Of a stretch of DNA of 64,000 bases, positions 9,110 through 55,755 are shown in pieces (positions within the stretch are counted from its first letter, which is position 1; every line of letters starts with the position of its first letter). This stretch comes from an uncultured Candidatus Saccharibacteria bacterium (GTDB lineage Bacteria; Patescibacteriota; UBA1384; CAYGGE01). The notes under the pieces were generated by a model. That model made no database searches, had not been told where the DNA came from, and was given only the letters and a program-made list of their open reading frames with translations. The stretch is from NCBI GenBank assembly GCA_964349485.1, contig CAYGGE010000005.1:3483-67482 (forward strand), written 5' to 3'. A program made the position numbers and the translations under genes.

Positions 9110-9550
9110 ATGAAACAGTCGCCCCGTGCTGAAAACAAACGAGCTCGCTTCGACTACACTATCGACGAGTCGATGGAAGCTGGAATTGCCTTAACTGGAC
9201 AAGAAGTTAAGGCTTTTCGAGCAGGCAAAGCCTCGTTAAATGGGACGTTTGTTCGACCATTATCAAGTGGGCCGAAGGATCAAATCGAGCTCTGGCTGGT
9301 TAACAGCCAATTCGCCAACACCGACGAACCAGATCGATCACGCAAGCTACTTGTGCATCGTAAAGAAATCGATCGTCTGATTGGTAAGATTCATGAAAAA
9401 GGTTACACCTTATTGCCTATTGCCATGTATTTTAAGCGAGGCAATATCAAGGTAGAAGTCGGTCTAGGGAAAGGCAAGAAACAGTATGAAAAACGGGAGG
9501 CGATCAAAACCCGCGATGTCAATCGAGAGCTACGCAGAACTGCACGATAG
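9110..9550 (+). CDS. smpB: SsrA-binding protein
   Basis: KRARFDYTIDESMEAGIALTGQEVKA, the canonical SmpB N-terminus. Confidence 0.9.
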   Translation: MKQSPRAENKRARFDYTIDESMEAGIALTGQEVKAFRAGKASLNGTFVRPLSSGPKDQIELWLVNSQFANTDEPDRSRKLLVHRKEIDRLIGKIHEKGYTLLPIAMYFKRGNIKVEVGLGKGKKQYEKREAIKTRDVNRELRRTAR

Positions 9551-32258: not shown

Positions 32259-33677
32259 ATGACCAGTAAGCGAACCGATATTATCTTTACGCTCCTGACC
32301 ATCCCAATCGATGCTCTGATGGTTCTTTTGGCTTTTGTCAGTTCATATTGGTTGCGCTCAGAGACTGAACTGCTACAGGTTATCTATCTTTGGCCATTTG
32401 AAAATTATCTCCAGTTTATCGGGCTCATGATCCCATTTTGGATCATCATATTTGCTTTAGCTGGTCTTTACTCACAGCAGGCTACGCGTCGGGGTTGGGG
32501 TAACTTTACAATGGTCTTTCTTGCCGTATCCTCAGGCATCATGTTCTTTGTGGCCTATGTCTTCTTGTCACGTACCCTATTCTTCTCTCGGTTGATTGTG
32601 ATCTACGCCTGGATTCTAGCCATCATCTTAGTTACATTAGGTCGTTTCCTGTTGGGACAGATTCGTCAGCTGTTGTTAAGACGGGGGATCGGAGCCAGAA
32701 CTGTTATCATTATCGGCAAGAATGAGACAGCCGTAACCCTAAAAAATGAACTCGAGTATCGTAAGGATCTTGGTTACAATGTCTTGAATGGCCTTTTCTC
32801 ACCTAATTTAAAAGTTCTCAAACAATACTTTACCAGGCACAAAGTCGATGAGCTGATCGTTGCAGACACCAGTATTGTATCCGATACCGTCCTAGACATC
32901 ATGACATTATGTGAGGAGCACAACGTCTTGTTCCGATTGGTGCCTAATCTGTTTGAGGTCCGTTCAACCAATGTCGAGGTCCAAACCTTGGCTGCTATCC
33001 CAATTATCGAATATCAACGGACTCCACTCGCCGGTTGGGCGAGCTTCGTGAAACGATCGATCGATATTGTACTTTCCTCGATTGCTCTCATCGTCCTAAG
33101 CCCTGTTTTCCTACTCTTATCAATCTTGGTTAAGCTCGATTCACCAGGCTCAGTTATCTATCGTCAACGACGCCTAGGTTTTCATCGTAAACAGTTCTAT
33201 ATCTTCAAATTTCGAACTATGAAAGCTGAGTTCTGTACTGGTGACGATTTTGCTGGCGCAACCGATGAAGAGATCTTTACTGAAAAATTCAAAGATCCAA
33301 AACTATTAAAATCGTTTATAGTTGAACGGAAACTGGAAGAAGATCCTCGGGTCACTACGATCGGTCGCTTTCTGCGTCGAACCAGTCTCGATGAACTACC
33401 TCAGCTCATGAACGTCCTATTGGGTCATATTGCCTTAGTTGGTCCTAGACCGATGCTACCTCAAGAAATTGAGAAATGTGGTGAACTAAGGAATCGATTA
33501 TTCATCATCAAACCCGGCCTCACTGGTCTATGGCAGGTCAGCGGTCGAAGTAGTGTACCGTTTAGTGAACGAATTAAACTTGACGCTTACTATATTGAGA
33601 ACTGGTCTCTCTGGCAGGACTTTATCATCATCATGAAGACCGTTGTTGTCATCTTACTAAGGAAGAACGCGTATTAA
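32259..33677 (+). CDS. polyprenyl-phosphate hexose-1-phosphate transferase (WbaP/WcaJ/CpsE-type initiating sugar transferase)
   Basis: N-terminal TM bundle, central NAD-binding-like domain, and a C-terminal bacterial sugar-transferase domain with PGLTGLWQVSGRS. Confidence 0.85.
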   Translation: MTSKRTDIIFTLLTIPIDALMVLLAFVSSYWLRSETELLQVIYLWPFENYLQFIGLMIPFWIIIFALAGLYSQQATRRGWGNFTMVFLAVSSGIMFFVAYVFLSRTLFFSRLIVIYAWILAIILVTLGRFLLGQIRQLLLRRGIGARTVIIIGKNETAVTLKNELEYRKDLGYNVLNGLFSPNLKVLKQYFTRHKVDELIVADTSIVSDTVLDIMTLCEEHNVLFRLVPNLFEVRSTNVEVQTLAAIPIIEYQRTPLAGWASFVKRSIDIVLSSIALIVLSPVFLLLSILVKLDSPGSVIYRQRRLGFHRKQFYIFKFRTMKAEFCTGDDFAGATDEEIFTEKFKDPKLLKSFIVERKLEEDPRVTTIGRFLRRTSLDELPQLMNVLLGHIALVGPRPMLPQEIEKCGELRNRLFIIKPGLTGLWQVSGRSSVPFSERIKLDAYYIENWSLWQDFIIIMKTVVVILLRKNAY

Positions 33678-33763
33678 AGTTCTCTAGTTATTTGGTTTAC
33701 TGGTAGCGCATAGAACTAAGAATTACCAGAGAACCAGATAACTAGATCCCTAGATAACCACCC

Positions 33764-34858
33764 ATGAAAATTGCTCTTGTCCACGATTACCTTATCAACT
33801 TCTCTGGCGCTGAACAGGTGCTTCTGGCTTTGCACGAACTTTATCCCTCTGCACCGATCTATACGGCCATCTACAATAAGGAAAGCTGTCCCCAGTTTAA
33901 CGATGCAACAGTTCACACCTCTTTTCTCCAAACTTGGCCGCTAGCCAAAACAAAATACAGACAGTACATTCCACTCCTACCGCTAGCTAACGAAAGTTAC
34001 GATCTATCGGCATATGATGTGGTCATCTCTGATTGTCACATCGCTACTAAAGGTGTCATCACCAAACCCGAGACGATCCACATATCTTATTGTCATACCC
34101 CCATCCGATATGCTTGGTTGTCACATATCGATCCAAGAGCGTCCGGCAGTTTCATGCCATGGCTTTCACCCATCGCTCGGGCCGCCGCACATTACTTACG
34201 GATTTGGGATAGTTTAGCGGCTGATCGGGTTGACCACTGGGTGGCCAACTCCAAGTATATTGCCAACCGAATCGACAAATATTACCGTAAAACGGCAAAA
34301 GTGATCTATCCACCGGTTAATGTAGAGGCTTTCGAGATCAGTGAAAAAATCGAAGATTACTATGTCTTCTGTAGTCGGCTCATCGACTACAAACTACCAG
34401 ACATCGTGATCGATGCGTTCAACATACTGGGTAAAAAGCTGATTGTGATCGGCCGTGGGCCGATGGCTGAGCAACTCAAGGCAAAGGCTATGCCGAACGT
34501 TAAGATCATGACGGAATATCTTCCCAATAGCCAACTGGCTGTGATCTTCTCTCACGCATCGGCTATGATTTTTCCAGCCGAGGAAGATTTTGGCATAGTC
34601 ATGGTGGAGATGATGGCGGCTGGTCGGCCAGTTATCGCTTATCATCTTGGTGGGGCGAGTGAAATCGTCATTCCTGGTAAGACCGGTGAGTTGTTCACAT
34701 TACAGACTCCCGAAGCGATAATTAAAGCTGTTGCAGCCTTCGACCCAATGGGTTACGATGGAAAAGTGATACGAGAACATGCTTTAAAATACGATCGATC
34801 TGCCTTTAAGAAACAGTTAGAAGAGTATATTGATACAGTGATTAAGAAAGAGAGGTAA
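33764..34858 (+). CDS. glycosyltransferase family 4 (GT-B fold)
   Basis: MKIALVHDYL...GAEQ N-terminus and the C-terminal EEDFGIVMVEMMAAGRPVIA E-x7-E motif. Confidence 0.8.
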   Translation: MKIALVHDYLINFSGAEQVLLALHELYPSAPIYTAIYNKESCPQFNDATVHTSFLQTWPLAKTKYRQYIPLLPLANESYDLSAYDVVISDCHIATKGVITKPETIHISYCHTPIRYAWLSHIDPRASGSFMPWLSPIARAAAHYLRIWDSLAADRVDHWVANSKYIANRIDKYYRKTAKVIYPPVNVEAFEISEKIEDYYVFCSRLIDYKLPDIVIDAFNILGKKLIVIGRGPMAEQLKAKAMPNVKIMTEYLPNSQLAVIFSHASAMIFPAEEDFGIVMVEMMAAGRPVIAYHLGGASEIVIPGKTGELFTLQTPEAIIKAVAAFDPMGYDGKVIREHALKYDRSAFKKQLEEYIDTVIKKER

Positions 34859-34860
34859 TC

Positions 34861-35481
34861 ATGGAATTAGCCGACTATCTGAAAATGATGTCCAAGGGTT
34901 GGAAGTCCATTTTGACTTATGTGGCTATACTAGGCGTCGTCGCTGGTGTCTGGGCATACTTGCAACCAGCCAAATATCAAGCATCAGCAACCATCGTCGT
35001 AGCCAAGAAAAATAATATTACTCAAAAAACGATTAACTATTATCAGTACGATGAATATTACGCTATTCAAGCCAGCGGATATTTTTCCGAAAGTTTGGCT
35101 TCACTGATGGCCAGTCCCGGGACAGTGAAGGAGATCTACGATCGCGCCGGTTATCCGCTGACTGACCTGTCGCTCCAAGCTTTGACTAAAGCAATTAAGG
35201 TGCGTAGAGTGCCTCCAGTTTCGATTGAGATGGTTATGGTTAGTACCGATAAAGTTAGAGCTGAGAAAATTATAGAGACCGCCATTATTGTTGCATCTGA
35301 GAAAACTGAAGCACAACGACGGAATGACGATCCAAACGATGCTTTCGTTGCAGTAACTGGGAATGTCGTCACTGGATTCGCCAAGCCGAGCGTGATCGTA
35401 AACGGCATTATTGGCATGATCGGCGGTTTGATCCTTGGTATGATCGTCGTATTCATGAATCACTACACGAAAAAAAGTTAA
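34861..35481 (+). CDS. polysaccharide co-polymerase (Wzz/CpsC/YwqC-like chain-length determinant), short form
   Basis: TM1, then a P-x-Y-x-A-x-A-T-I-V motif, an extracytoplasmic domain, and a C-terminal TM2 with a GxxxG-rich helix. Confidence 0.5.
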   Translation: MELADYLKMMSKGWKSILTYVAILGVVAGVWAYLQPAKYQASATIVVAKKNNITQKTINYYQYDEYYAIQASGYFSESLASLMASPGTVKEIYDRAGYPLTDLSLQALTKAIKVRRVPPVSIEMVMVSTDKVRAEKIIETAIIVASEKTEAQRRNDDPNDAFVAVTGNVVTGFAKPSVIVNGIIGMIGGLILGMIVVFMNHYTKKS

Positions 35482-35541
35482 ATCTATCGAAGGAGGGGGA
35501 ACTAAAATTGTCAGTTTCATCGATTATCTGGCGGAGGATCG

Positions 35542-37014
35542 ATGAGTAACACAGTTGCTAATCCGATCAGACGCAATGTCGATGGTTTACAGAACCCGAA
35601 GAGTTACCACCGACCCAGAGCCAATCAAAAAAAGCGTTTTTCATGGCGTTCAATTTCTTGGAGGCTCTTGTTATCATTTGTCGTAATCGGTAGCCTCATA
35701 TCGCTGTTGCTAGCTCCCAGGGTCATGTCATTCTCCCGCCAATACGAACTACTAGACTTACTCAACAATGGTCGTTATCTTGTACTCTTTCAGAACGATG
35801 CAGAGATCAGAGCCTCAGGTGGATTCATTGGGTCATTTGCCATCGTGGAGACTAAGAATAAAGTCATAAAACCTCTTTACTTCGAGACGAATATATACAA
35901 GCTCGATGATCCATATGCTGCACTAACCAACCTTAGCCCTCCTAAACCATTACTTTCTGTGACTGGCGAACGAGGTTGGGCACTCCGCGACTCGAACTTT
36001 GCCGCTGACTTTCGTCAGAGCGCTCCAACAGTCGCTTGGTTCCTGAAGGACGAGGCTCAGAAACTGACCGGACCCAAAAAAGCTGAACTAGACCGAGCTT
36101 TGGGCGGTAACTACGAAGTCGACGGGGTCGTCGGCCTGACTCTCACCGCTTTTCTCGATATCCTTCAGGCTACTGGGCCGATTGAGGTGCCAAGCCAGGG
36201 TATCGTAGTAACCAGTGCCAACTTCTTTCCCATGATTCAACAGCTAATCGAAAAAGATTATTTTGACGACCCAGTGAATAAACAGCTTAACGAACCAAAA
36301 ACTGTACTCCAAGATTTATTTCCGTTAGCAATGCAGAAGGCTCAAAATCTGCCGAAGACTACTCAGTATCGGATCGCCACTAAACTTCTGGCCGAAAAAA
36401 AGATCATAGTTTACGTCAATGATCCAGAAAAAGAACAGATCTTAGTCGACGCTGGCTGGGCTGGGGCTTTGACAATGGTGGCTGATAAAAAGCTCGCAGC
36501 TATGCACGACACCTTGGCTGTAGTTAGAACTTCAATCTCTGGCAACAAAAGTAGTATCGATATTAACCCCATTTACCGTTATCTGGTGACCAATAAATCA
36601 CCTGACAGACTTCAAGCAAAATTGGAGATCCAGTTTGAACATACTGGCAAGCAGGAGTGGCCTGGTGGGCCAAACAAGGAGTATATTCGTGTACTAGTCC
36701 CGGAAACAGCGGTACTTGCACGGGCGAGCAGTAGTGAGACTGATGTGACTGATCGAATCGACATTGGGTCGGAGAGCGGCTTCACTGCATTTGGGTTTAC
36801 GATACAAACAGAACCTAAGACTACTCAAAGAATGACGATCGAATATACTTTACCGAAAGACAAAATCATGGATCGTGGCGTATTCGGCAAAGAGAAATAT
36901 CGACTCGCCGTTTATCGTCAGCCCGGTGGCAACAGTCCGGACATAACTATTCTCTACAACGCTACAGCTCTGTTTCAGGGTCGGCTGACTACTGATCGGG
37001 TCATTCATGACTAA
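35542..37014 (+). CDS. membrane-anchored extracytoplasmic protein of unknown function (possibly DUF4012-like)
   Basis: Basic N-terminus plus a single TM, then a ~430-aa domain; last gene of the polysaccharide cluster. Confidence 0.4.
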   Translation: MSNTVANPIRRNVDGLQNPKSYHRPRANQKKRFSWRSISWRLLLSFVVIGSLISLLLAPRVMSFSRQYELLDLLNNGRYLVLFQNDAEIRASGGFIGSFAIVETKNKVIKPLYFETNIYKLDDPYAALTNLSPPKPLLSVTGERGWALRDSNFAADFRQSAPTVAWFLKDEAQKLTGPKKAELDRALGGNYEVDGVVGLTLTAFLDILQATGPIEVPSQGIVVTSANFFPMIQQLIEKDYFDDPVNKQLNEPKTVLQDLFPLAMQKAQNLPKTTQYRIATKLLAEKKIIVYVNDPEKEQILVDAGWAGALTMVADKKLAAMHDTLAVVRTSISGNKSSIDINPIYRYLVTNKSPDRLQAKLEIQFEHTGKQEWPGGPNKEYIRVLVPETAVLARASSSETDVTDRIDIGSESGFTAFGFTIQTEPKTTQRMTIEYTLPKDKIMDRGVFGKEKYRLAVYRQPGGNSPDITILYNATALFQGRLTTDRVIHD

Positions 37015-43932: not shown

Positions 43933-44317
43933 GGGGCTGTATTGGCTTCGACGGGTAGATCCTGAAGAAGAAATGGGCGAGCCGCGTTGTTCACGTACGA
44001 ACAAAAATCCTAAGTGCAAACTTAGTAGGCCGTGTTAAATCTGCCGTAGCGCAAGCTTTCGGTAGCCTAACATTGGCTCCTGTATACGCTTAAATTCGTA
44101 TACCGTCAGCTTAGTCATGCCTATTGGCTAAGTCCTGGCGCAATAAAATAGGCTGCACTTACCTAGAGTATCGCTGTCGGTAACTAAGCTTACTGCGGTT
44201 GCCATTGTTGTTTCTTGTTTGTTCTAAGCAACAATCAAGCCTTTGAGCAGACTACGCTCGTAGTCCATTTCCCTATTCACTATTCGGACAGGGGTTCGAC
44301 TCCCCTCAGCTCCACCA
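43933..44317 (+). ncRNA. ssrA: transfer-messenger RNA (tmRNA, SsrA)
   Basis: 5' GGGGCTGTATTGGCTTCGACGGG and 3' tRNA-like end GGACAGGGGTTCGACTCCCCTCAGCTCCACCA. Internal candidate tag frame at 44016..44093 would encode (A)NLVGRVKSAVAQAFGSLTLAPVYA*. Confidence 0.85.
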
Positions 44318-44326: not shown

Positions 44327-45502
44327 TTAACGATAATATATCATTGTGGAGTTTTCAGGGAATGTGGCTGGACATGCTCCGGTACTTTTGTAACTTAATT
44401 GCATCTTGGTGTCCGAGAGTACCTTGAAATATGCATACCCATTTGTACTTACCTCATGGCCGTATTGCGTCAGGTTGTAGCAATGCGAATCTGTGACTAG
44501 AGCCGGGTCTTTGTAGGTCTGATTCTTCTCACCGATAATATAGCGTTTTCGGTTGATCTCATACAGGATTAGCTCGTTCGCTGAGGTCTTGTAGATCGAG
44601 AACGGTGAAGCGTACTGCCCGTCATAGGCCTCTTGTACGCCATCTTGTGTCAGGTGCCACATGCCTGCAATACTACCTTTCACGTCTCGTGAATTACTAC
44701 CACAGTTTTTTGATTCGCCTGCTTTGTAGTGTCCCATGAGGGCGAGAAATTCTTGCCTAATGTTTTCCTCATAGTAGTCAAATGGACAGGCAGCATTGAC
44801 GAAACTATACCTATCTTTAAGCTTGTCATATCTCTCCTGGTTGACAAAAGTATTTGTCTTACTCTCGTCCCGTAGATAAATATTCCAGTTATGAGCTTCG
44901 TTAGTACCCGAAGTCTTGGCGACCAGATCCCCAGCTCTAAAGGCGAGTCGCCTGGTTGGCGACACATAGGCCGAGTTAACTGTTGGAGGGGTGACTGATT
45001 TGATTATCTCAGTAGCTTCAGAAATATGATCGAAGCTTAATTTTACACTCTCAGATATGCGGAACCCTAGGTGCCACTGTGGAGCGTTGGTGCCGTCGGC
45101 AAAGTACGAATAATCCTCAAGCGTCATGTCAACTGGAGCATATACTTCAATTGGTTCGGCATTTCTTTGGGCATCTGTCTTAATGTTGATCGTGATCCCA
45201 TTGATAGTCTGACTTTCAATGTAGCCACCGTTCAACTCACCAAGCGGTATAATGCTGTTCACTTTCGTTGGTTCAAATATTCGAGAAGTAAACCTAACTT
45301 TTTTTGACTCTCTTGATACTGCCTGACCCTGACTAGTGGGGCTAGTCTGAAAGCTTTTCCGATTACCTGGTAGATTCTGTCGACGTGTACTGATGAATAT
45401 CATAATAATAAGAATGAGTGCGGTTAGACTGAGTAACCAACGAAACCAATCCAAGGTCTGCGGATTTTTCCAAGCATGCAATTTGTTATATTCCGGTTCC
45501 AC
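44327..45502 (-). CDS. membrane-anchored protein with degenerate LytM/M23-like domain plus C-terminal Cys-containing domain (paralog 1)
   Basis: N-terminal TM. Motifs VYAPVD, LSFDHISE and FRAGDLVAKTSGTNEAHNWNIYL parallel the M23 HxxxD, xxHL and VxxGxxIGxxGxTGxxxxPHLHF blocks, with His to Tyr/Trp/Ile substitutions. Paralogous to 45506..46666 and 54874..55755. Confidence 0.6.
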   Translation of the reverse strand: MEPEYNKLHAWKNPQTLDWFRWLLSLTALILIIMIFISTRRQNLPGNRKSFQTSPTSQGQAVSRESKKVRFTSRIFEPTKVNSIIPLGELNGGYIESQTINGITINIKTDAQRNAEPIEVYAPVDMTLEDYSYFADGTNAPQWHLGFRISESVKLSFDHISEATEIIKSVTPPTVNSAYVSPTRRLAFRAGDLVAKTSGTNEAHNWNIYLRDESKTNTFVNQERYDKLKDRYSFVNAACPFDYYEENIRQEFLALMGHYKAGESKNCGSNSRDVKGSIAGMWHLTQDGVQEAYDGQYASPFSIYKTSANELILYEINRKRYIIGEKNQTYKDPALVTDSHCYNLTQYGHEVSTNGYAYFKVLSDTKMQLSYKSTGACPATFPENSTMIYYR

Positions 45503-45505
45503 GGT

Positions 45506-46666
45506 TCACCTCTCCCAAAATTCTATGTTACTCGACGGAAATGCTGTAGGACAGGTTCCAGTGCCTTTAACCACCAATAATCTAGTGTCTTCATCAAGCC
45601 TGAGGTACAGCCATTTATTTGCATCGGCGTAACAGATACTTGCTCCTTGTCTAATGCCCTCTGGCATGATTTTAGACTGATAATCTCTGATCGAGAAAAC
45701 ACCGAAACCGTTCTGTCTTAGGTTAATTTCAACCTTGCCATTTTGGTTGCCGATCTCTAACCAATTGCCATTTGTGTCCGAGGATTTGTCTTGAAACCAG
45801 CCGCCAGAGACAGTTCCGGCAACATCGTGTGAAGGATTGCCACAATCGACACTGGTGAGGGCCCGTCCATCATGCGCCCTCATAATGCTATAATATTTAG
45901 ATTTCAGCAAATCAGTATAGTAGTTATATGGACAATCTGCGGTTACGGTCTGTTCCCACCGCCAACGATTAGGGTTAATATGGGGAGCAGTTTTTGTTGA
46001 ATTGAGTAAGAACAAATCGAAAGAACCAGCTAGGTCGGTGCCGTTGCTGTAACCAACGAGCTCACCGGCCTTAACTGGAATCGAAACATATTTGAGATCG
46101 TTAGACCTATCCGACGGTGTAGTAGGAGCGTTGGGTTTAATCTTGTCACTGACCTCGTCCATGTGGTCGAAATTAAATGTAACTTCACAGCTAATCTGCA
46201 ACTCTAAGCGGTATTCCCCAGGTGCAGTCGGATTATTGGGATCGCGTTTGGCGAAAACAAGTGAAATGATTTTTGCATCAGTCGGCGCATAAAGTGGCGT
46301 CATAACACGATTCGAGGCATCACCTTTGACCATAACATATGCTCGCCCAGGCGATCCGGCAATGATCGCCCCTATCGGTGCGGTCTGTTTCAGATTGTCA
46401 AAGTCTGTAAATTCAGCAGTAAATACTGGCGTTGGATTACTCGTACAGTTCTTATTGTTTTTGGCAAGTTGGCTCTGATTACTGTGTGAAGCTTTGGTGC
46501 CACGGAACTGATTGACCGGTGGCCTTATTATGTATATTAATAACATGCCACTAAACAAAAATACTAACCACAACAATAGACTGACAGTAAACCGTTGTGG
46601 TAAGCGCCTTACCTGTTCGATCGATATCTTGTCCATCATCAGACTCGCTAAAGCTGGTACTCTCAT
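45506..46666 (-). CDS. membrane-anchored protein with degenerate LytM/M23-like domain plus C-terminal Cys-containing domain (paralog 2)
   Basis: LYAPTD, FNFDHMDE and VKAGELVGYSNGTDLAGSFDLFL. The C-terminal TGTCPTAFP matches paralog 1's TGACPATFP. Confidence 0.6.
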   Translation of the reverse strand: MRVPALASLMMDKISIEQVRRLPQRFTVSLLLWLVFLFSGMLLIYIIRPPVNQFRGTKASHSNQSQLAKNNKNCTSNPTPVFTAEFTDFDNLKQTAPIGAIIAGSPGRAYVMVKGDASNRVMTPLYAPTDAKIISLVFAKRDPNNPTAPGEYRLELQISCEVTFNFDHMDEVSDKIKPNAPTTPSDRSNDLKYVSIPVKAGELVGYSNGTDLAGSFDLFLLNSTKTAPHINPNRWRWEQTVTADCPYNYYTDLLKSKYYSIMRAHDGRALTSVDCGNPSHDVAGTVSGGWFQDKSSDTNGNWLEIGNQNGKVEINLRQNGFGVFSIRDYQSKIMPEGIRQGASICYADANKWLYLRLDEDTRLLVVKGTGTCPTAFPSSNIEFWER

Positions 46667-46823
46667 CTTAAGTCTACATCAAAACCACTGGTGTAGCCAG
46701 TCTAGTAGTTAGTCTAGCCACAGTCACCCAGACAGCGGGGTGCCACTTGTATCGGAGTGTCAGAAATGAACCTATCCCAAAAACTTGTTGGCATTTTCGT
46801 ATGTTCACGTTTATGATAGCCTC

Positions 46824-48638
46824 ATGCAGTATGCTGATGTAGCTTTGTCTGTTCGTACTAAAACTAGGCAAGATGTCTTTACGTATGCCATCCCGCCCGC
46901 TCTACTCGTCGATCTTTCGATCGGTCAGCGTGTTATTGTGCCGTTTGCCGGTCGGACGTTGACCGGTGTGGTGACGCAATTTCGTCTTAAGCCACCGAAA
47001 ACCGCGCGTGGAATAAAAGAGATTAAGCGCCTTGCGGAGCCATTTGCTTTGATCGACGAACAGACTATTGAGTTGGCTAGGGCTGTGGCGACTCGATATG
47101 CGGCAACGTTAGGCGACGTCTTAGCCTCGGCTCTCCCGAAACCAGCACCTCGAACGAGTAAAAAAATGATAATCCAATTCCCTGAAGCAAAAAAAACCAT
47201 TGCTCATGGTGGCATCTACGGGCTTTATGCTCCTCGCAGGCAACGGCTACAACAATATCTTTGGCTCATTACCAAGCTTATGGCCCAGGGCGAACAGGCA
47301 TTGGTGCTGTTTGTTAGTCATGAGAAGGCCATGACTTTTCAAGAGATATTAGCTACCCAAAGTATCGACTCATTATTATTGCCGCAGGCATCGGCGACAA
47401 GTGAAGCCTATAGCGCTTGGGTAAATGCCAGAGCTGGTCAGCACATTGTAGTAGTTGGGACCCGTAAAAGTATCTTCCTGCCGCTAGTTAAGGGTGGGGC
47501 GATCATTATAGATGAACCGAGCGAATTTGGGTATAAAGAAGAACAGTTTCCCTATTATCATGCAGTGACCGTTGCTAAGGCGCGAGCGGCGACTGAAGGT
47601 CTAACGGTTTTTCTTGGCGATGTAGCACCTCGTCTCGTTGAATGGCAGGAGATGCAGCAAAAAAAACTGACGGTGGTTCACCTGCCCAAGCTTCTTGCCC
47701 CTACGGTAACGCTTATTGATACTTCGAACTGTCGTGGCATTTTCAGTGAGGCGGTAATCGATCATATGCGGCGAACAATGCAAAACAATGGTAGGGTATG
47801 TCTGTTTTTTAATCGAAAAGGGAAAGGTCGTTTCTATCGATGTCTCGAATGTGAGGTGGCAATCTACTGTCCGCACTGTGATACCTTACTTCACGTTGAG
47901 TCAATTAGCAACGAGACGCGTTTAGTCTGTGCCCAGTGTGGCTACGAAATCAGCCCACCCTATCGATGCGAATCGTGTCAGAGCTATCGACTAGGTTCTG
48001 CTGGACTCGGAGTTGAGTCGTTTGCCAAGATTGTCAGCGAGCATTTTCCCGAGGCGAAAATTGCGACACTTTCGAAAGATGGTGATAATTTTGTCGAAGA
48101 AGCTGACATTGTCGTTGCGACTGCACAACTGTTTAGTCGATCACTGACCAAGCCGTACGATCTCCTAGTTGTATTTCGACTTGATCAGATACTTCATGGC
48201 TCTAGTTTCGATACAAATGAACAAGCCTATCTCTTGCTGAACCGCTTAGCTGAACGAGCTAAGCAGCTTCTGCTCCCAACAAGTGAACCCGATCACCAAG
48301 TCGTTCGAGCGTTTTGTGATGCCAATATGGCGGTATTTTACGCGAACGAACTGGCGATCAGAAAAAATGCCGGCTACCCGCCAGCTATTTCGTTTATCCG
48401 CCTCATGATTGCTGATACTGATAAAAACAAGGCTAATGCCGAAGCTACTAAGTTGTATGAACAATTACAGCTCACAATAATGCCCGATCATCTGATTCCG
48501 CCATCGCCAATTGGTAGTGGGAAACGTCGCGATAAATATCGGTACCAAGTGATAGTAAAAATCAAACTAACTGATGAGCTATTGAAAATGATCCCGTCTA
48601 ATTGGCAAGTCGATCCCGAGCCGGAAAATCTCAGTTAA
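46824..48638 (+). CDS. priA: primosomal protein N' (PriA) homolog with degenerate helicase motifs
   Basis: PriA N-terminus MQYADVALSV...FTYAIP and the Cys4-Cys4 zinc-binding region (CLECEVAIYCPHC...CAQCGYEISPPYRCESCQS). AQGEQALVLF aligns to PriA AQGKQALV. Walker A position reads YAPRRQRL, Walker B reads DEPSE, and motif III reads GDVAP. Confidence 0.75.
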   Translation: MQYADVALSVRTKTRQDVFTYAIPPALLVDLSIGQRVIVPFAGRTLTGVVTQFRLKPPKTARGIKEIKRLAEPFALIDEQTIELARAVATRYAATLGDVLASALPKPAPRTSKKMIIQFPEAKKTIAHGGIYGLYAPRRQRLQQYLWLITKLMAQGEQALVLFVSHEKAMTFQEILATQSIDSLLLPQASATSEAYSAWVNARAGQHIVVVGTRKSIFLPLVKGGAIIIDEPSEFGYKEEQFPYYHAVTVAKARAATEGLTVFLGDVAPRLVEWQEMQQKKLTVVHLPKLLAPTVTLIDTSNCRGIFSEAVIDHMRRTMQNNGRVCLFFNRKGKGRFYRCLECEVAIYCPHCDTLLHVESISNETRLVCAQCGYEISPPYRCESCQSYRLGSAGLGVESFAKIVSEHFPEAKIATLSKDGDNFVEEADIVVATAQLFSRSLTKPYDLLVVFRLDQILHGSSFDTNEQAYLLLNRLAERAKQLLLPTSEPDHQVVRAFCDANMAVFYANELAIRKNAGYPPAISFIRLMIADTDKNKANAEATKLYEQLQLTIMPDHLIPPSPIGSGKRRDKYRYQVIVKIKLTDELLKMIPSNWQVDPEPENLS

Positions 48639-48694
48639 TAAAAGAGACGATAATCGCACTAAAATGCTATACTTATCTCAAAGAGGGAGAGGCT

Positions 48695-49849
48695 GTGAAG
48701 ATTGGGATATTTACTGAGACATATGAACCAACCATCAATGGGGTTGTTGTTTCAATCAATACGTTTAAGAAAGAACTTGAGCGACAGGGTCACGAGTACT
48801 ACATTTTCTGTCCTTTCAACAAACATGCCAAAAGCGATCCGCCAAATGTATTTCGGTTTCCAGCAATTCATTTCCGCAACGATTTACTCTATCCTTTGGC
48901 TATTCCCATGCCGTTTGCATGGGTTAAGCAACAACTACCAATCGACATCATCAAGACTCTAGACATCATCCATGTTCAACATTTCGCCTTAATGGGTCAA
49001 TATGGCCTTAGACTGGCCAAAGCATACAATATTCCAAGTCTATATACATATCACACCATGGCAGAGCTTTATGTCGTCAATGCTCCCTGGATCGCACCTC
49101 TGGCCGAGCCAGCAATAAGGGCTTTGACTCGCTATACGGCACGACAGGCCAAGCACGTAATTACTCCCACTCAGTCAGTTAAGGACTATTTGCACACGAT
49201 TGGTATTCATAGGCCGATATCGGTGGTTCCGACAGGTATCGATGTAAATCAATACGGTCGGACGAATGGCCGGAGTCTACGCAACAAATATCGCATTCCG
49301 CATGACCATAAATTACTTCTTTACGTAGGTCGATTAGCGGCGGAAAAAAACGTACCATTTTTGTTGCAGGCGTTTAAGCAGGCTTTGCGCTTTGAACCTA
49401 AAACACATCTTATCTTAGTTGGCGGTGGGCCTGACAAGAGTCAGTTTGAGACGTGGGTAAAACAGAATAGACTTAAGAATGTCATTTTCACTGGCTTTGT
49501 AGCACATTCTGAGGTAAAAGAGCATTTTGGTTTGGCCGATATCTTTGTTTTTCCCTCGGTGAGTGATACTCAAGGTATTGTCATCCTTGAAGCCATGGCG
49601 GCCGGAGCAGTTCCAGTGGCGATCGATAGACTTGGTCCCCACGATCTCATCGACAATGGTCACAGTGGAGTCCTAATTGACTTGAATCTTGATGCTTTTT
49701 CTGGTACAATTATCGATCTATTACGTAATGATCGTAAAAGATTAGCTATGGCGAGAAATGCAGAGCGCCACGCCAATCGATATGACTATAAAGTAACAGC
49801 TAGACAGATGGAAGAAGTCTATCGTGAGTTAATTAAAAACGATGATTGA
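48695..49849 (+). CDS. glycosyltransferase family 4 (MGDG-synthase-like / GT-B)
   Basis: KIGIFTETYEPTINGV N-terminus and C-terminal E-x7-E region (ILEAMAAGAVPVA). GTG start at 48695 follows a GGGAGAGG RBS. Confidence 0.75.
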   Translation: MKIGIFTETYEPTINGVVVSINTFKKELERQGHEYYIFCPFNKHAKSDPPNVFRFPAIHFRNDLLYPLAIPMPFAWVKQQLPIDIIKTLDIIHVQHFALMGQYGLRLAKAYNIPSLYTYHTMAELYVVNAPWIAPLAEPAIRALTRYTARQAKHVITPTQSVKDYLHTIGIHRPISVVPTGIDVNQYGRTNGRSLRNKYRIPHDHKLLLYVGRLAAEKNVPFLLQAFKQALRFEPKTHLILVGGGPDKSQFETWVKQNRLKNVIFTGFVAHSEVKEHFGLADIFVFPSVSDTQGIVILEAMAAGAVPVAIDRLGPHDLIDNGHSGVLIDLNLDAFSGTIIDLLRNDRKRLAMARNAERHANRYDYKVTARQMEEVYRELIKNDD

Positions 49850-51218
49850 TAAGTCAACCAATACCAAGGTAGCCCTTGTTCCGGCACCCTCACTGCGTCA
49901 AAAAGCGAAGAAGGTGACCGTTTTTGATAATGCACTTAAGACAACGGCTGATACGATGCTTGAAACCATGCGATCGTATAAAGGTATGGGCTTGGCTGCA
50001 CCCCAGATTGATCAGTCAAAACAGCTGCTGGTGATTGAATATGTTCCCGAGGAGAAAGGTGAACAACCAATTCCGACGACTATCCTAGTTAATCCCAGTA
50101 TCACTGATTCCAGTAAGTCAACGGACTGGATGGACGAGGGCTGTTTGTCGATTCCTGGTGTTGAGTTACCTGTTAAGCGCTCAACTGCGATTAATGTCTT
50201 AGCACAAGATATATCTGGTAAGAGAATCAAGATTCGGGCCAAACAATTGTTTGCCCGCATTCTCCAACATGAGATAGATCATCTGAACGGGACATTGATC
50301 ACCGATCGAGCCTATCCAAACCTCGAACAGTTAGCTGGTAGCAGAATTATCTTCTTTGGTACACCGAATCATGCTACCTACTATCTGACTGCTCTCGCTG
50401 CAACCAAGGCAGAGATCGTTGCAGTAGTCACTGAAACCGACAAACCTGCCGGAAGAAATCAACAACTCACACCGCCTCCGGTGAAGGTTCATGCTGAACT
50501 AATGGGTCTACCCGTACTCCAATTCGAATCCCTGAAAACGAAAGAAGCCCAGCAAGCGATCGATAATCTGAAGGCTGATCTAGCTGTCGTTGTTGCTTAT
50601 GGTCAAATCATTCCCCAAACAGTTTTGGACATGCCCAAGCATGGCTTCTTGAATATTCATTATTCTTTACTCCCATCATACCGTGGCGCTACACCTCATC
50701 AATCGGCAATTCTAGCCGGAGAGAAAATCGCAGGTTACAGTATCTTCAAGCTAGATAGTGGCCTAGATACAGGTCCAATCCTCTCTCAAGGGAGCCTACC
50801 TATCGAGCCCGGCGATACCAGTCACACGTTGTTACAAAAACTTGTTCCGCCTTCCATTTGTACTCTTTTGGAAATGTTACCCGAGTATTTTTCAGGTAAG
50901 AAACAGTTAAAAGTGCAGGATGATAGTCAAGCAACCAATACCAAAGTTTTTACCAAAGAGGATGGCCGAATTGACTGGACGGATGAACCTACCGTTATAG
51001 ATCGTCAGATTCGGGCTTACTTCCCGTGGCCAGGAACATTTACAGAGATCAACGGTCAGCGTTTGTTGATTCATGCGGCTCATATCATTGATGACCGATT
51101 AGTAATCGATGTCGTTCAACCAGCCGGTAAACAGTCAATGAGCTTAGGTAGTTACCTACGTGGCAACCCTGCCGGGTTGACTTTCTTCTCGAGTATTGAT
51201 AGAGTAAAGCTTAACTAA
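49842..51218 (+). CDS. def-fmt: peptide deformylase - methionyl-tRNA formyltransferase fusion protein
   Basis: Def motifs GMGLAAPQ, EGCLS and QHEIDHLNG at residues 1-170, then Fmt RIIFFGTPNH...HYSLLPSYRG from residue ~185, in one continuous frame. Overlaps the upstream GT4 stop. Confidence 0.8.
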   Translation: MIDKSTNTKVALVPAPSLRQKAKKVTVFDNALKTTADTMLETMRSYKGMGLAAPQIDQSKQLLVIEYVPEEKGEQPIPTTILVNPSITDSSKSTDWMDEGCLSIPGVELPVKRSTAINVLAQDISGKRIKIRAKQLFARILQHEIDHLNGTLITDRAYPNLEQLAGSRIIFFGTPNHATYYLTALAATKAEIVAVVTETDKPAGRNQQLTPPPVKVHAELMGLPVLQFESLKTKEAQQAIDNLKADLAVVVAYGQIIPQTVLDMPKHGFLNIHYSLLPSYRGATPHQSAILAGEKIAGYSIFKLDSGLDTGPILSQGSLPIEPGDTSHTLLQKLVPPSICTLLEMLPEYFSGKKQLKVQDDSQATNTKVFTKEDGRIDWTDEPTVIDRQIRAYFPWPGTFTEINGQRLLIHAAHIIDDRLVIDVVQPAGKQSMSLGSYLRGNPAGLTFFSSIDRVKLN

Positions 51219-51239
51219 AACTAACAACTGGGAGTATGA

Positions 51240-51707
51240 ATGTTAATGATTCGCTTAACCCGCATGGGTAAAAAGCATCAGCCGACTTATCGGGTGGTGG
51301 TTACGCCAAAACAGAACGCCTCACAAGGTGATTATTTGGAAAAAATTGGACTCTACAATCCACTACGAGAAGTAGTGGAGATCGATATGAAAAAAGCTGT
51401 CGAATGGCTGGATAAAGGTGCTATGCCTTCTGACCGAGTTGCCCGACTATTGACCAAGGCTGGCGTCAAACATAAATCAATTGTAGTTAAACACTACACT
51501 CCAAAGCCAGAAGCAGAGGAAAAAGTTGAGGTCAAGTCGGCAGCAGAGACTCCTGTAGAGGATACTATTGAATCAACAGAAGATGTAACTGAAGAAGTTG
51601 TTGATACTGTCGAGGTTGACGAAGTTCCTGTTGCAGAAGAGTCGATCGAGCAGTCAGCTTCATTAACCGCTGAAGTCGAGACTTCTGCCGAAGAGCCAAC
51701 CGCCTAA
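51240..51707 (+). CDS. rpsP: 30S ribosomal protein S16 with acidic C-terminal extension
   Basis: MLMIRLTRMGKKHQPTYRVVV N-terminus. Confidence 0.9.
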   Translation: MLMIRLTRMGKKHQPTYRVVVTPKQNASQGDYLEKIGLYNPLREVVEIDMKKAVEWLDKGAMPSDRVARLLTKAGVKHKSIVVKHYTPKPEAEEKVEVKSAAETPVEDTIESTEDVTEEVVDTVEVDEVPVAEESIEQSASLTAEVETSAEEPTA

Positions 51708-51807
51708 AAAGCGAAAAAGCGAAAAAAATGTGCTATGCTAATGCCAAGGAAGTGTGCATGCAGCACGTCGAACTGCTACGCCTAAACACCTGATAATGGA
51801 GGCAACG

Positions 51808-52185
51808 ATGGAAAAGGATCAAGAGTTCGTGGAATATATCGTCAAGTCGATCGTTAACGTACCTGACGAAGTCAAGACAGAGAGGACTGTCGATGAGATG
51901 GGGGTTCTAATCACCCTCGCAGTAAACCCAGAAGATATGGGTAAGATCATCGGTAAAGAGGGGCGAACAGCCAAAGCACTTCGCACACTCTTAAGAGTTA
52001 TGGGCGCTCGTAGCAATGCTCGAATCAACCTGAAAATAATGGAACCAGAAGGTGGTAGACTAGAGCACGCCAGTCATGACGATCATGATGATCACGACGG
52101 TCATGATCATGTTCATAACGATGCTCCGGCCTCAGCTGCAGACCAGCCAGCCGAAGAGACCGAAAACGCAACTGAAATACTATAG
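51808..52185 (+). CDS. KH-domain RNA-binding protein (YlqC/UPF0109-like) with His/Asp-rich tail
   Basis: GKIIGKEGRTAKALRTL KH GXXG loop. Position between rpsP and trmD matches the ylqC operon context. The ATG at 51808 follows a GGAGG RBS. Confidence 0.75.
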   Translation: MEKDQEFVEYIVKSIVNVPDEVKTERTVDEMGVLITLAVNPEDMGKIIGKEGRTAKALRTLLRVMGARSNARINLKIMEPEGGRLEHASHDDHDDHDGHDHVHNDAPASAADQPAEETENATEIL

Positions 52186-52263
52186 AACTGAAAGTAAAAC
52201 AAAAAAGGTCGCCACAACCTATACTAGGAATGGTGGCCTTTTGTGTTTATACTAGAGAACAAT

Positions 52264-52953
52264 ATGCGTATTGATATCATTACCCTATTTCCTGAAATGT
52301 TTACCGGCCCTCTTTCCGAGAGCATTCTTAAGCGCGCCCAAGACGCAGGGAGAGTCAGTATTCACCTACATCAGCATCGAGACTATGCGATCGACAAACA
52401 TGGCACAGTTGATGATACGCCGTACGGGGGCGGGGCGGGCATGGTACTGAAAGTCGATGTCTTGGATGCAGCTATCCAGGCGGTGAAGGTCAAGGGCCAA
52501 GAAGAGGGGAATATTGATCCGTATGTCTTACTCATGACCCCCCAAGGGCGTGTCTTTAAACAGATCGTTGCCAAGGAGTTCTCCACCAAACCCTGGCTTA
52601 TCTTTGTTTGTGGTCACTATGAGGGTTTCGATGAGCGAGTTCGAAGCCTCGTCGATGATGAAATCTCAATCGGTGATTATATCTTAACCGGCGGTGAGCT
52701 ACCAGCAGCTGTTATTACTGATGCAATTGTTCGCCTATTACCAGGAGTGCTTGGCAAAGAGGCATCACACCAAGATGAGTCACACGAACATAACTTACTG
52801 GAATATCCGCATTACACCCGGCCTGAGCAATATCAAGGTCAGACCGTCCCAGATATTCTCAAAAGTGGCAACCATGCTGCGATCAATGCATGGCGGCAGA
52901 CTCAGTCAGTACAACGAACTAAAGAGCGTCGACCTGAACTCACTAACTTGTAG
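52264..52953 (+). CDS. trmD: tRNA (guanine37-N1)-methyltransferase
   Basis: MRIDIITLFPEMF N-terminus and SPOUT knot motifs. Confidence 0.9.
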   Translation: MRIDIITLFPEMFTGPLSESILKRAQDAGRVSIHLHQHRDYAIDKHGTVDDTPYGGGAGMVLKVDVLDAAIQAVKVKGQEEGNIDPYVLLMTPQGRVFKQIVAKEFSTKPWLIFVCGHYEGFDERVRSLVDDEISIGDYILTGGELPAAVITDAIVRLLPGVLGKEASHQDESHEHNLLEYPHYTRPEQYQGQTVPDILKSGNHAAINAWRQTQSVQRTKERRPELTNL

Positions 52954-53023
52954 TGACAGTTAAGATAAATCATGGTATATCCTAGTTGTTGCATTGGCAA
53001 CAATATGTTTTTGAGGAATTACA

Positions 53024-53659
53024 ATGGCTCGGCAAATACCAGAGATGGCGGACATCGATGGTAACGGCCTTGTGCCTGTTGCCTCAATTTGTTCAGACTA
53101 TAGGCCTACAGTAAGACGCATAGCACAGATACTTCACAGACGTTACTACATCCCAGGACACGATTTCGCTGACATATTAGGTTTGGTGAATCTCGCACTT
53201 CTTCAAGCAATACGCGATTTCGATCCGAGCAAAGGGACATTTGAGCGATTCATCTATCTTATCGCTCAGAGACTCGTTATCACTGGTATTCGGACGGAGA
53301 GCAGGAAGTCAAGAGTTTTGAATACAGCATACTCCCTTGATGCCCTACTTGGCGTTGACGGAGATAGTACTCTACTAGATCTGATACAAGCAACAGATTC
53401 AGTCGAGGATTCATCACTTTCTGAACATGAGCCGTCAGATAACGTATTGACGTTCATTTCACGGTATTGCACTCCGATCGAACAGCTCGTGGCAAGAGGA
53501 ATAGCTAATCAAAAAAGCTATGACGAAATGGTCGAGCAGGCTAAGACAGAAGGCATATGTCTAAATAGCGGTCGACAAATCAACCGAAAGTCGATTGACA
53601 ACGCCTTCAGTCGCCTAAAGCAAAAAGTCAGGAAAGAGTTTCCTACTGCGTCCCAGTGA
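53024..53659 (+). CDS. sigma-70-family RNA polymerase sigma factor (ECF/SigH-like, regions 2 and 4 only)
   Basis: Region 2: DFDPSKGTFERFIYLIAQRL. Region 4 HTH: KSYDEMVEQAKTEGICLNSGRQINRKSIDNAFSRLKQ. Confidence 0.5.
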   Translation: MARQIPEMADIDGNGLVPVASICSDYRPTVRRIAQILHRRYYIPGHDFADILGLVNLALLQAIRDFDPSKGTFERFIYLIAQRLVITGIRTESRKSRVLNTAYSLDALLGVDGDSTLLDLIQATDSVEDSSLSEHEPSDNVLTFISRYCTPIEQLVARGIANQKSYDEMVEQAKTEGICLNSGRQINRKSIDNAFSRLKQKVRKEFPTASQ

Positions 53660-53677
53660 GCTTCACTGGGACGACTT

Positions 53678-54787
53678 CTATAGTACCGACAAAGGATCGA
53701 TCCAACCTGTGAGGTCAGTATCCGATTTAAGATAGCCAGCGAGATTCAATTTTTGACCTCTCAATAGTCCAAAATGGAGATGTTTACGCTCATTGTCGGT
53801 TTCACTGGTGAAACCATCACCCAAGATCGCAATTTGCTCGCCTTTACTCACGGTAAAGCCTTTTAGTTTGAGCGATGTCGGATCGAGATGACCATAAATA
53901 CCAATAAATGGTTCTGTACTGATTTTATGTTGTATTGCTATGACTCCGCCATACCCAGTGGCAGTTCCAGAAAAGATCACCTGTCCATCGGTAATCGCTT
54001 TGACCGCTACCTCTGCTACGGTATCGGTGAACTCAACATCGACACCAGTGTGATAACCGGAAAAGCGCTCGGGCTGAATTGGTGAGGTCTTCATTGTGAT
54101 GTATGTTCCAAATTTCTTTTTAGTAATCCGGTCGGTGAACTCGTGGGTTGGTGGTACGAGTGACTGTTTATTATCCAGGACAAGACTATTTAGAAACGCC
54201 TGATAAATCGATTCTGGTAGGTCTGGTCGTTTAGCAATGACATAAAAGAGCGATGGGTTAGTAGCCTCAATTCGAATATCGGTTACGATATGACGTTGAC
54301 TACGCCATGAAGGTTGGTTAGGAAAATTAGCAACGCCTGCTTTCTTCTCGATATCGTAGCGCACCGCTTGACGACCGACAATCGTTTGATCGGCTTTATT
54401 ATGAATATTGACTGTCGATAAGGTCAGAAAATCTTTTCCAGAGAACTTGCGGATGAAAATCTGTGATTTTTCAAGCTCATTCGTACCCTCTGCACTTGCC
54501 TCATAGAGGTTGATAGCCTCAATACTGTTAACCGATACTGCCTGCCAAGAGCTAGGCACAGAGGCAGAAAAACTGTAGTCCTGACTAACGCCGTCGATCG
54601 TACTACTGACGAGCGTTTTGATCGCCTGCTGAGTTGACGCCGTGAATTGTTGTTCGCTCACGGCTATCATGGTTTCTGGGGAAAGAGAGTCCACTGGCTT
54701 GGGCCATATTGTTCGAAATACAAAATAGCCTGCAATTAAGACAATGATGCTGATCACTATTAGTACAATAACGCGTGATCGATTCAT
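53678..54787 (-). CDS. M23-family (LytM/lysostaphin-like) peptidoglycan endopeptidase, membrane-anchored
   Basis: Intact motifs HTGVDV (HxxxD), GIYGHL and KHLHFGL (HxH). The ATG at 54787 gives an N-terminal signal anchor; the ORF track extends to the TTG at 54874. Confidence 0.8.
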   Translation of the reverse strand: MNRSRVIVLIVISIIVLIAGYFVFRTIWPKPVDSLSPETMIAVSEQQFTASTQQAIKTLVSSTIDGVSQDYSFSASVPSSWQAVSVNSIEAINLYEASAEGTNELEKSQIFIRKFSGKDFLTLSTVNIHNKADQTIVGRQAVRYDIEKKAGVANFPNQPSWRSQRHIVTDIRIEATNPSLFYVIAKRPDLPESIYQAFLNSLVLDNKQSLVPPTHEFTDRITKKKFGTYITMKTSPIQPERFSGYHTGVDVEFTDTVAEVAVKAITDGQVIFSGTATGYGGVIAIQHKISTEPFIGIYGHLDPTSLKLKGFTVSKGEQIAILGDGFTSETDNERKHLHFGLLRGQKLNLAGYLKSDTDLTGWIDPLSVL

Positions 54788-54873
54788 ATGATTACTATAC
54801 GTCAAATTATCCCAGCGAGATAGTGTCCCATTTGATGAAAACACGTTATAGTGTAAGTAAATAGGAGTCTGCA

Positions 54874-55755
54874 ATGAAGAGAGCGGGGATAAGTGTCGTA
54901 CACGTTATACTTATTGTAATTTTAGTTTTGATAGTTGGTGGCGCCGTGTACACATCTTTTACAAAGAACTACAAACAGGTCCGCTCTAAGATTAGTAAGC
55001 AGGCCTCTACGTATACTCTGTTAGGGCAAAACAATAATACGGAAAAGCACAATGACGACGAACTCAGCAATACGACATGGGAATATGATGGGACTAGTTG
55101 GCGATCTGGCGGTCAAAAAGCTGCCTGCAAGTCACCATTCATGTTTACCCAAGCTCCTGCCGATCTTACTCTAGCCACACACGTGCACTATCCTGGTCAA
55201 TATCGGGGTAAGGGTGGACTGTATAAGCCTCACGGTGGTTACCGGTTTGAAGGAGTGAAGAATAATGAGGTGACGGTTGTTGCGCCGTACGATGCGTTTA
55301 TCGTTCGAGGGAGTCGTTACGTTGAGCAAGGTGAAATTCAATATATGTTTGACTTTCAACTGCCTTGTGGCATGATGTACCGTTTTGATCACCTCTACAC
55401 CCTTACTCCAATACTTGAATCGATCGCTAGTCAATTCCCAGAGGCAAAGGTCGATGATTCACGAACGACAAATCTGACATCTCCGGTGGCAGTTAAGGCG
55501 GGTACCCCATTAGCAACCAAGATTGGCTTTCTTAAGACAAATAACCCGTCGTTTGATTTTGGTGTATATGATCTAACGAAGAGGAATGCGTCGTCAACAG
55601 ACGCGGCTTGGTTAACGAAGCATCAGACGGAGCTTGAATTAGCTGGCCATGCTATCTGTTGGTTTGATTTATTGCCACCAGAGGACGCAACGAGAACGAA
55701 AAGTCTCCCAGCTGGTGACCAGCTAGGCGGTAAAAATAGTGATTATTGTAAGTAA
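54874..55755 (+). CDS. membrane-anchored protein with degenerate LytM/M23-like domain (paralog 3, shorter, lacks the C-terminal Cys domain)
   Basis: VVAPYD, YRFDHLYT and VKAGTPLATKIGFLKTNNPSFDFGVY align with paralogs 1 and 2. AGGAG RBS. Divergently adjacent to the intact M23 gene. Confidence 0.5.
   Translation: MKRAGISVVHVILIVILVLIVGGAVYTSFTKNYKQVRSKISKQASTYTLLGQNNNTEKHNDDELSNTTWEYDGTSWRSGGQKAACKSPFMFTQAPADLTLATHVHYPGQYRGKGGLYKPHGGYRFEGVKNNEVTVVAPYDAFIVRGSRYVEQGEIQYMFDFQLPCGMMYRFDHLYTLTPILESIASQFPEAKVDDSRTTNLTSPVAVKAGTPLATKIGFLKTNNPSFDFGVYDLTKRNASSTDAAWLTKHQTELELAGHAICWFDLLPPEDATRTKSLPAGDQLGGKNSDYCK

Follow-up and report, generated by a model that had tools for sequence, protein, structure and literature searches.

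Three membrane-anchored paralogs with LytM-like domains and altered zinc sites belong to a widespread, unannotated family of Patescibacteria

What role can be assigned to three membrane-anchored proteins whose sequences recall the LytM domain of the M23 cell-wall peptidases but do not preserve the residues with which those enzymes hold zinc, and do these proteins form a unit with the intact M23 peptidase whose gene lies beside one of them? The question is raised by a stretch of 64,000 nucleotides (nt) from an uncultured Candidatus Saccharibacteria bacterium (assembly GCA_964349485.1, contig CAYGGE010000005.1, positions 3,483 to 67,482), referred to here as the window. An earlier note, made from this sequence alone, had drawn attention to the open reading frames (ORFs) P1 (44327..45502, minus strand, 391 amino acids (aa)), P2 (45506..46666, minus strand, 386 aa) and P3 (54874..55755, plus strand, 293 aa), and all three are present. 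The reading which we prefer, and for which we consider the balance of probabilities to be even, is that P1, P2 and P3 belong to a superfamily of membrane-tethered, extracytoplasmic, cysteine-rich, non-canonical LytM domains that have a binding or scaffolding role and act as hetero-oligomers.

The mutual homology that had been proposed for the three ORFs holds, with evidence of two kinds. P1 and P2 align over their full lengths (E=9e-24, 25% identity), while the pairwise similarity of P3 is marginal (E=9e-4 to P2 and 0.15 to P1), and it is the comparison of family profiles that joins P3 to the other two decisively: the P1/P2-family profile matches the P3-family profile with 99.0% probability (E=9.1e-18, 195 columns), so that the homology of P3 to P1 and P2 is real. 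In this alignment residues 71-276 of P2 (nt 45839..46456) correspond to residues 82-293 of P3 (nt 55117..55752, preceded by a linker of low predicted confidence), and the equivalent domain in P1 spans about residues 69-268 (nt 44699..45298). The shared domain contains four conserved cysteines, C74, C160, C245 and C275 in P2, which are C85, C165, C262 and C292 in P3. Database searches returned 19 relatives for P2, more than 100 for P3 and 64 for P1, and all of the named ones come from Patescibacteria.

The extent of the shared domain changes the picture of the C-terminal extension of P1 and P2, which had been described as an extra cysteine-containing domain of about 200 aa. The extension is real, but it measures about 110 aa, and the CP(F/Y)(D/N)YY and CG motifs which had been counted among its features lie inside the domain held in common with P3, because their cysteines (C245 and C275 of P2) align with cysteines of P3. 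What remains beyond the shared domain is a predicted lipocalin-like barrel, eight-stranded in P2 (residues 277-386, nt 45509..45838) and occupying about residues 269-391 of P1 (nt 44330..44698). For a 412-aa protein at another locus (L007, 3..1013, minus strand), the match to the P2-family profile is limited to its C-terminal part (profile positions 233-337), and this part of P1 and P2 may therefore also occur in other architectures.

The assignment of the shared domain to the LytM/M23 fold must be considered separately for structure and for sequence. AlphaFold2 (AF2) models, with predicted local distance difference test (pLDDT) scores of 89.8 and 84.9, have the LytM beta-sheet fold, and the best Foldseek match by template modelling (TM) score is the LytM domain of EnvC (probability 1.00, TM 0.64). 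Sequence methods applied directly give little or nothing. Scans of P1, P2 and P3 against Pfam and NCBIfam yielded no match, to PF01551 or to any other model; PF01551 was found in one of 42 relatives of P3, at E=0.046, and in none of the 20 members of a second set; sequence-profile searches of the PDB came back empty, and hhalign found no match to the single sequence of the neighbouring M23 peptidase. A direct alignment with a small M23 profile, composed of PDB fragments together with LytM and lysostaphin sequences, is weak (53-61% probability). The link is instead provided by a further subtype, referred to here as type C, which is fused or adjacent to P3-like domains and passes the Pfam M23 gathering score. 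Its alignment with the same M23 profile has a probability of 96.7% (E=3e-10), and its alignments with the P3 family (69%) and the P2 family (74%) extend over the entire domain and take in the Cys-Pro motif. The sequence connection between M23 and P1, P2 and P3 is thus wholly indirect, and it is because type C bridges the M23 enzymes and the P3 and P2 families that the fold proposed in the earlier note is supported by sequence as well as by the AF2 models and Foldseek; of the checks suggested there, the PF01551 profile matched no paralog, but the predicted structures do adopt the LytM fold. We regard the structural and family assignment of P1, P2 and P3 to LytM/M23 as solid. The idea that some family members are canonical M23 peptidases fused to a P3-like domain was dropped, since the M23-matching parts of these proteins contain neither HxxxD nor HxH and are degenerate type-C domains.

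In the canonical M23 enzymes, zinc is bound by the His and Asp of the HxxxD motif and by the second His of the HxH motif, and the catalytic water is held by a further conserved His and by the first His of HxH (PMC5053510). The canonical triad of HxxxD and HxH is intact in none of P1, P2 and P3, and the terminal HxH is replaced by S-F-D in P3 (S226 to D228) and P2 (S215 to D217) and by N-W-N in P1 (N205 to N207), as had been recognised. The first motif had been placed in the wrong register. The YAPxD segment was taken to be the counterpart of HxxxD, and in the profile alignments this segment (V-x-A-P-x-D-A) falls on the M23 strand V-K-A-I-T-D-G, which follows HxxxD; the statement that the first zinc His has become Tyr or Val is wrong for the same reason. 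In the transitive alignment, which passes from M23 to P3 by way of type C, H120 coincides with the M23 His and R124 with the M23 Asp. The first zinc His thus corresponds to H120 of P3, to R108 of P2 and to a Gly of P1, and the zinc Asp to R124 of P3 and to a variable residue in P2 and P1. The middle catalytic His, in the FDH motif, is present in all three (H173 in P3, H168 in P2 and H159 in P1). That this is the only His retained is true of P1 and P2 but not of P3, which keeps H120 as well. In P3 the codons of H120, H173 and D228 occupy nt 55231..55233, 55390..55392 and 55555..55557.

Conservation at these positions was evaluated in 147 P3-type domains, drawn from the representative sequences of 50%-identity clusters; none of these domains combines a canonical HxxxD with HxH. 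Their signature is instead Q-R-K-H...H...D..D, with Q109 in 143 of the 147, R111 in 146, K118 in 134, H120 in 137, H173 in 146, D228 in 139 and D233 in 138, and with the four cysteines almost invariant. Position 124 is Arg in 114 domains and Gly, Ile, Leu, His or Ala in the others, and of the two His of HxH the first is replaced by Phe, Gly, Ser or Ala and the second by Asp. Among P2-type domains D167 and H168 are invariant (20/20), D217 is kept in 19 of 20, and 17 of 20 have Arg at the first-His position, where His is confined to the two remotest members. The P1-type domains (n=36) keep H159 in 32 cases, have Gly at the first-His position, and replace the family Asp by Asn (N207) in 29. Judged by these residues, the paralogs form a series of rising degeneracy from P3 through P2 to P1. 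The term "degenerate" is correct insofar as the canonical triad is incomplete in all three, but it is not adequate for P3, because its constellation of two His and two Asp residues is strongly constrained. The P3-type proteins are likely, on this pattern of conservation, to retain a working site, either a binding site or a modified catalytic one.

The second of these options leads to the main alternative, namely that the P3-type proteins are still-active hydrolases with a remodelled catalytic centre and that P1 and P2 are their non-catalytic partners. H120 and D228 (which stands where the last zinc His would be), together with D233 or D126, would hold the metal, and H173 would serve as the catalytic base. 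The near-invariance of H120, H173, D228 and D233 is what such a centre would lead one to expect; position 124 varies while these four are fixed, so that the site would be independent of the Arg that fills the metal position; and the segment HGGFRFD supplies an H-x5-D spacing, with D126 in 103 of the 147 domains. EnvC and NlpD, as degenerate LytM factors, do not to our knowledge conserve these positions. Against this alternative, M23 enzymes use the leading His of HxH to position the nucleophilic water (PMC5053510), and this residue has become Phe, Gly, Ser or Ala, and Arg stands at the zinc-Asp position in most members. We know of no active M23 enzyme with such a set of ligands. On the whole we consider an active site of this kind doubtful, though well worth keeping in view.

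The location of the domains was assessed from their anchors and cysteines. Membrane anchoring of all three proteins, claimed previously, agrees with the N-terminal hydrophobic helix found in each of them. The helices of P1 (about residues 19-38, nt 45389..45448) and P2 (about residues 26-48, nt 46523..46591) are ordinary membrane helices; the database entry of P2 begins at M11, which may be its true start. In P3 the N-terminal helix (residues 6-28, nt 54889..54957) carries a degenerate prepilin-like motif, KRAG|ISVVH. The first cysteine pair (C74 and C160 of P2) is lost jointly in the P1-type family, and this suggests that the cysteines are paired as C74-C160 and C245-C275 in the numbering of P2, as putative disulfides. 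From the membrane helices, prepilin-like segments and lipoboxes at the N-termini, together with the conserved cysteines, we infer that the LytM-like domains lie outside the cytoplasmic membrane.

The prepilin-like signals suggest a pilus or adhesin role which would apply to only part of the family. On this alternative the proteins would be surface adhesins or pilus-associated host-binding proteins, exported in the manner of type IV pilins, with the LytM domain as a ligand-binding head by which the epibiotic cell would attach to the wall of its host. A survey of the anchors of 42 P3-type relatives found the canonical prepilin motif G|F-x-x-x-E in 10 and a match to Pfam N_methyl (PF07963; best 5e-6) in 8, and a type-C member (locus L056) has the canonical motif too; clustered paralogs and diverse anchors are what surface proteins typically show; and the family has its main distribution in Saccharibacteria and other Patescibacteria, of which the cultivated representatives are attached to host cells and make use of type IV pili. 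The same survey found a degenerate motif in about 17 of the 42 relatives and lipoboxes or plain membrane anchors in others, which argues against a general role of this kind, and in the P3 of the window itself the motif lacks the Glu at +5 and there is no N_methyl match. The AF2 model of P3 does not have a pilin fold: a helix at residues 8-43 is followed by a linker with pLDDT of 52-56 and then by a separate LytM domain which is not packed on the helix. Pilus genes are, moreover, not conserved near 80 P3-type loci whose neighbourhoods were sampled. We consider an adhesin or pilus function very unlikely as an account of the family. A combined version, in which the P3-type domain would be a new catalytic or ligand-recognising variant of the LAS/M23 fold, with His-His-Asp-Asp instead of the His-Asp-His zinc triad and in many members on a prepilin-like stalk, and would recognise or cut the wall of the bacterial host, not that of the cell itself, together with P2, P1 and type C, appears only slightly less improbable.

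The intact M23 peptidase is encoded at 53678..54787 on the minus strand, with an N-terminal membrane anchor and an M23 domain at nt 53756..54055. Its identification stands: it matches Pfam PF01551 at 5.1e-15, contains HTGVD, GHL and HLHFG, and matches M23 sequences in the PDB and endolysin families in PHROG. P3 is divergent from this gene across a spacer of 86 bp, as had been observed, and in one other locus (L001) an M23 gene lies two genes away from the P3 ortholog. The earlier note saw in this proximity a possible module formed around a real endopeptidase, for cell-wall remodelling or for attack on a host. On this model the paralogs would be activators, of the EnvC/NlpD kind, of cell-wall amidases or of the adjacent M23 enzyme. 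A LytM fold without the zinc triad, as found here, is the hallmark of activators of the EnvC/NlpD type, and EnvC gives the top TM-score. Across the 80 P3-type loci, however, a canonical M23 gene occurs within 6 kb in only one (L048), and what else was matched as "M23" in these neighbourhoods belongs to the degenerate type C, so that neither the adjacency in the window nor the arrangement in L001 reflects a conserved module, and a conserved M23-P3 gene pair can be ruled out. All-against-all clustering of the neighbours at the same loci likewise ruled out a conserved operon partner, no neighbour family being conserved among them. The accessory modules and partners of the known activators were also not encountered: no amidase or other hallmark of EnvC or NlpD was present among the ORFs scanned in the window, to which the search was confined, and no coiled coil, LysM domain or FtsEX association was seen. 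The peptidase is a neighbour of P3, and its link to the paralogs is confined to adjacency in the window. An activator function modelled by analogy on EnvC and NlpD seems to us unlikely.

What does recur in the gene neighbourhoods is the association of the family's subtypes with one another. P1 and P2 are in tandem with a 3-nt gap, and the order P2 then P1 is found again in another Patescibacteria genome (L007/L008), with 63% and 56% identity. In a Berkelbacteria locus (L093) type C is followed by a P1-type gene, with two further family members; three members are consecutive in L009; and five are consecutive in L060 (4737..11315), four of them P2-like and one P3-type. Fusions join the P3-type domain to type C (P0149, P0234 and P0222), to a more distant family domain (P0169), to a second P3-type domain (P0123) and to a P2-type domain (P0190), and the cluster of the P0149 fusion has several members of 552 aa from different sources and contigs. 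One family member, P0258, also contains three cell-wall-binding repeats of the CWB2 type. In L003 the P3 ortholog has two unannotated neighbours, and neither belongs to the family.

A fourth, shorter LytM-like subtype was observed at L093 (4343..5134, minus strand), at L009 (9081..9872, plus strand) and in residues 70-250 of P0169. Its motifs are MKHYF, in which the first His is kept, FxH and F(D/E)(V/I)A, and in Berkelbacteria it co-clusters with P1/P2-type genes.

The reading that P1, P2 and P3 are tethered binding or scaffold proteins can now be stated in more detail. Their domains would not be ordinary zinc endopeptidases, and the former active-site groove is predicted to be a binding site, most plausibly one that accepts a stem peptide of peptidoglycan or part of a partner protein. 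The proteins, tethered on the outer side of the membrane, would serve cell-wall remodelling as scaffolds or regulators; different subtypes would probably act together as hetero-oligomers, and the conserved operon pair of P2 and P1 might form a single complex in the manner of Csd1-Csd2. Several points count against this proposal. The near-invariant H120, H173, D228 and D233 are equally to be expected of a remodelled metal site that is still active. The register of the first motif, in which H120 takes the place of the first zinc His, is likely but is taken from a transitive profile alignment of moderate probability, and direct alignment without realignment puts K118, two residues away, at the His position; P3 has no H-x3-D pair in either register. 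The 80 P3-type loci have no conserved neighbour that would point to a partner, and the proposed hetero-oligomers are deduced from gene order and fusions.

The distribution of the family is far wider than the "lineage-specific expansion" that the window had suggested, and it is more accurately described as a phylum-wide superfamily with several subtypes: the single-domain P3-type; the more degenerate P2-type and P1-type, which have the C-terminal lipocalin-like barrel; and type C, which is nearest to Pfam M23. P1, which is identical to the database protein P0278, belongs to the most degenerate of these. A search of the full library with the P3-family profile gave at least 702 cluster representatives (50% identity) at E<=1e-3, of which 254 were found at E<=1e-30. 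A scan of one genome per species, for which the query was a profile of 8 sequences, found the P3-type family in 216 genomes, nearly all of them from Patescibacteria; the hosts are mostly Saccharibacteria, and also include Berkelbacteria, Moranbacteria, Roizmanbacteria, Levyibacteriota, Nomurabacteria and Paceibacterota. Nine records of the P3 family (L015, L031, L038, L040, L041, L062, L067, L077 and L078) are labelled Gammaproteobacteria, Acidobacteria, Acidimicrobiia or Micrarchaeota, and these labels probably reflect mislabelled or contaminated bins. P1, P2 and P3 are covered by none of the models of Pfam, NCBIfam and PHROG, they have no phage relatives in PHROG, and full-text searches of the literature yielded no description of a LytM-like family in Patescibacteria or Saccharibacteria, nor of a link between LytM domains and pilins.

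The window as a whole is an ordinary chromosomal stretch of a genome of the Patescibacteria (candidate phyla radiation), which encodes ATP synthase, gyrAB, clpB, recG, priA, def-fmt, rpsP, trmD, thrS and a surface-polysaccharide cluster. The transfer-messenger RNA (tmRNA) gene detected by ARAGORN at 43933..44317 (plus strand) is convergent with P1, whose stop lies 10 nt from the tmRNA 3' end, in agreement with the earlier placing of the P1/P2 tandem beside it. The possibility that the tmRNA gene served as the insertion site of a genomic island carrying the pair was ruled out, since the guanine-plus-cytosine content is flat and the 3' end of the tmRNA is not repeated. The predicted tmRNA tag is unusually long (ANLVGRVKSAVAQAFGSLTLAPVYA), and the gene of the partner protein SmpB (9110..9550, plus strand) lies 34 kb away. 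In L001 the region upstream of the P3 ortholog (1..4137) has a serine recombinase gene, a run of ORFs of about 100 aa and smpB, and it could be a mobile element beside the tmRNA system.

Several other genes of the window deserve mention. A single 458-aa ORF (49842..51218, plus strand) combines peptide deformylase (EGCLS, HEIDH) with methionyl-tRNA formyltransferase, and in a Moranbacteria locus (L005) the two are separate proteins of 165 and 332 aa. A ThyX of 550 aa (Pfam Thy1; 3647..5299, minus strand), about twice the usual length and with two matched stretches, may be an internally duplicated thymidylate synthase. In the region 51240..52185 (plus strand) RpsP has a long acidic C-terminal tail, and the next ORF after rpsP (51754..52185) ends in a run rich in His and Asp (HASHDDHDDHDGHDHVHND). 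A 211-aa protein in which only sigma-70 region 2 was detected (53024..53659, plus strand) is encoded convergently with the M23 peptidase gene. The surface-polysaccharide cluster (32259..37014, plus strand) comprises a sugar transferase, a GT1 glycosyltransferase, a Wzz-like chain-length protein and a DUF4012 protein.

In the Patescibacteria, whose genomes are tiny and whose cells rely on a host, the majority of surface proteins lack an annotation; the present analysis supplies a fold and a family frame for one widespread group of these. The group is shown to derive from M23 cell-wall peptidases and to have a different, strongly conserved residue set at the old zinc site. The conserved H120, H173, D228 and D233 are concrete residues of interest, and P2 with P1, and the P3-type with type C, are candidate pairs. 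If the site should be active or directed at the host, the family would bear on how these cells remodel their own wall or breach that of the host; if the proteins should be plain pseudoenzyme scaffolds, the outcome would be a useful annotation and no surprise.

Degenerate LytM proteins are already well known as a class, and it remains to compare P1, P2 and P3 with its members. With EnvC, NlpD, ActS, DipM, SpoIIQ and Csd2, the degenerate LytM (dLytM) proteins, they have in common a LytM fold with an incomplete zinc site. Unlike these, they have no Pfam M23 match and have conserved cysteine pairs that may form two disulfides; the P3-type has a strongly conserved H...H...D..D of its own in the old active site; LysM, coiled-coil, amidase or FtsEX context is absent and some members have prepilin-like anchors; P1 and P2 end in a lipocalin-like barrel; and the family is nearly confined to Patescibacteria. 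From the catalytic M23 enzymes (LytM, lysostaphin, Csd3, ShyA and MepM) they differ in the replacement of the Asp of HxxxD by R124 in P3 and of HxH by (F/G/S)-F-D. The known structures closest to the predicted C-terminal barrel of P1 and P2 are lipocalin/calycin-like eight-stranded barrels, for example those of SAHS1 (5xn9) and Atu4866 (2jmb), and also the C-terminal barrels of the D-aminopeptidase 1ei5 and of Pab87 (2qmi). The metal-free degenerate LytM domain of Csd2 pairs with the active Csd1 as a heterodimer (PMC5053510), and in Helicobacter pylori the two are encoded by an adjacent pair of LytM genes (PMC5053510), an arrangement which resembles the tandem of P2 and P1 and the fusions between subtypes. 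One member of the Csd1-Csd2 pair is an intact zinc enzyme and dimerisation involves a helical domain, whereas P2 and P1, which are known from their genes, are both non-canonical and have no predicted helical domain. By analogy, the closest parallel to the paralogs would be Csd2 in its pairing with Csd1, and the broader one would be the non-catalytic LytM class of EnvC, NlpD, DipM and SpoIIQ.

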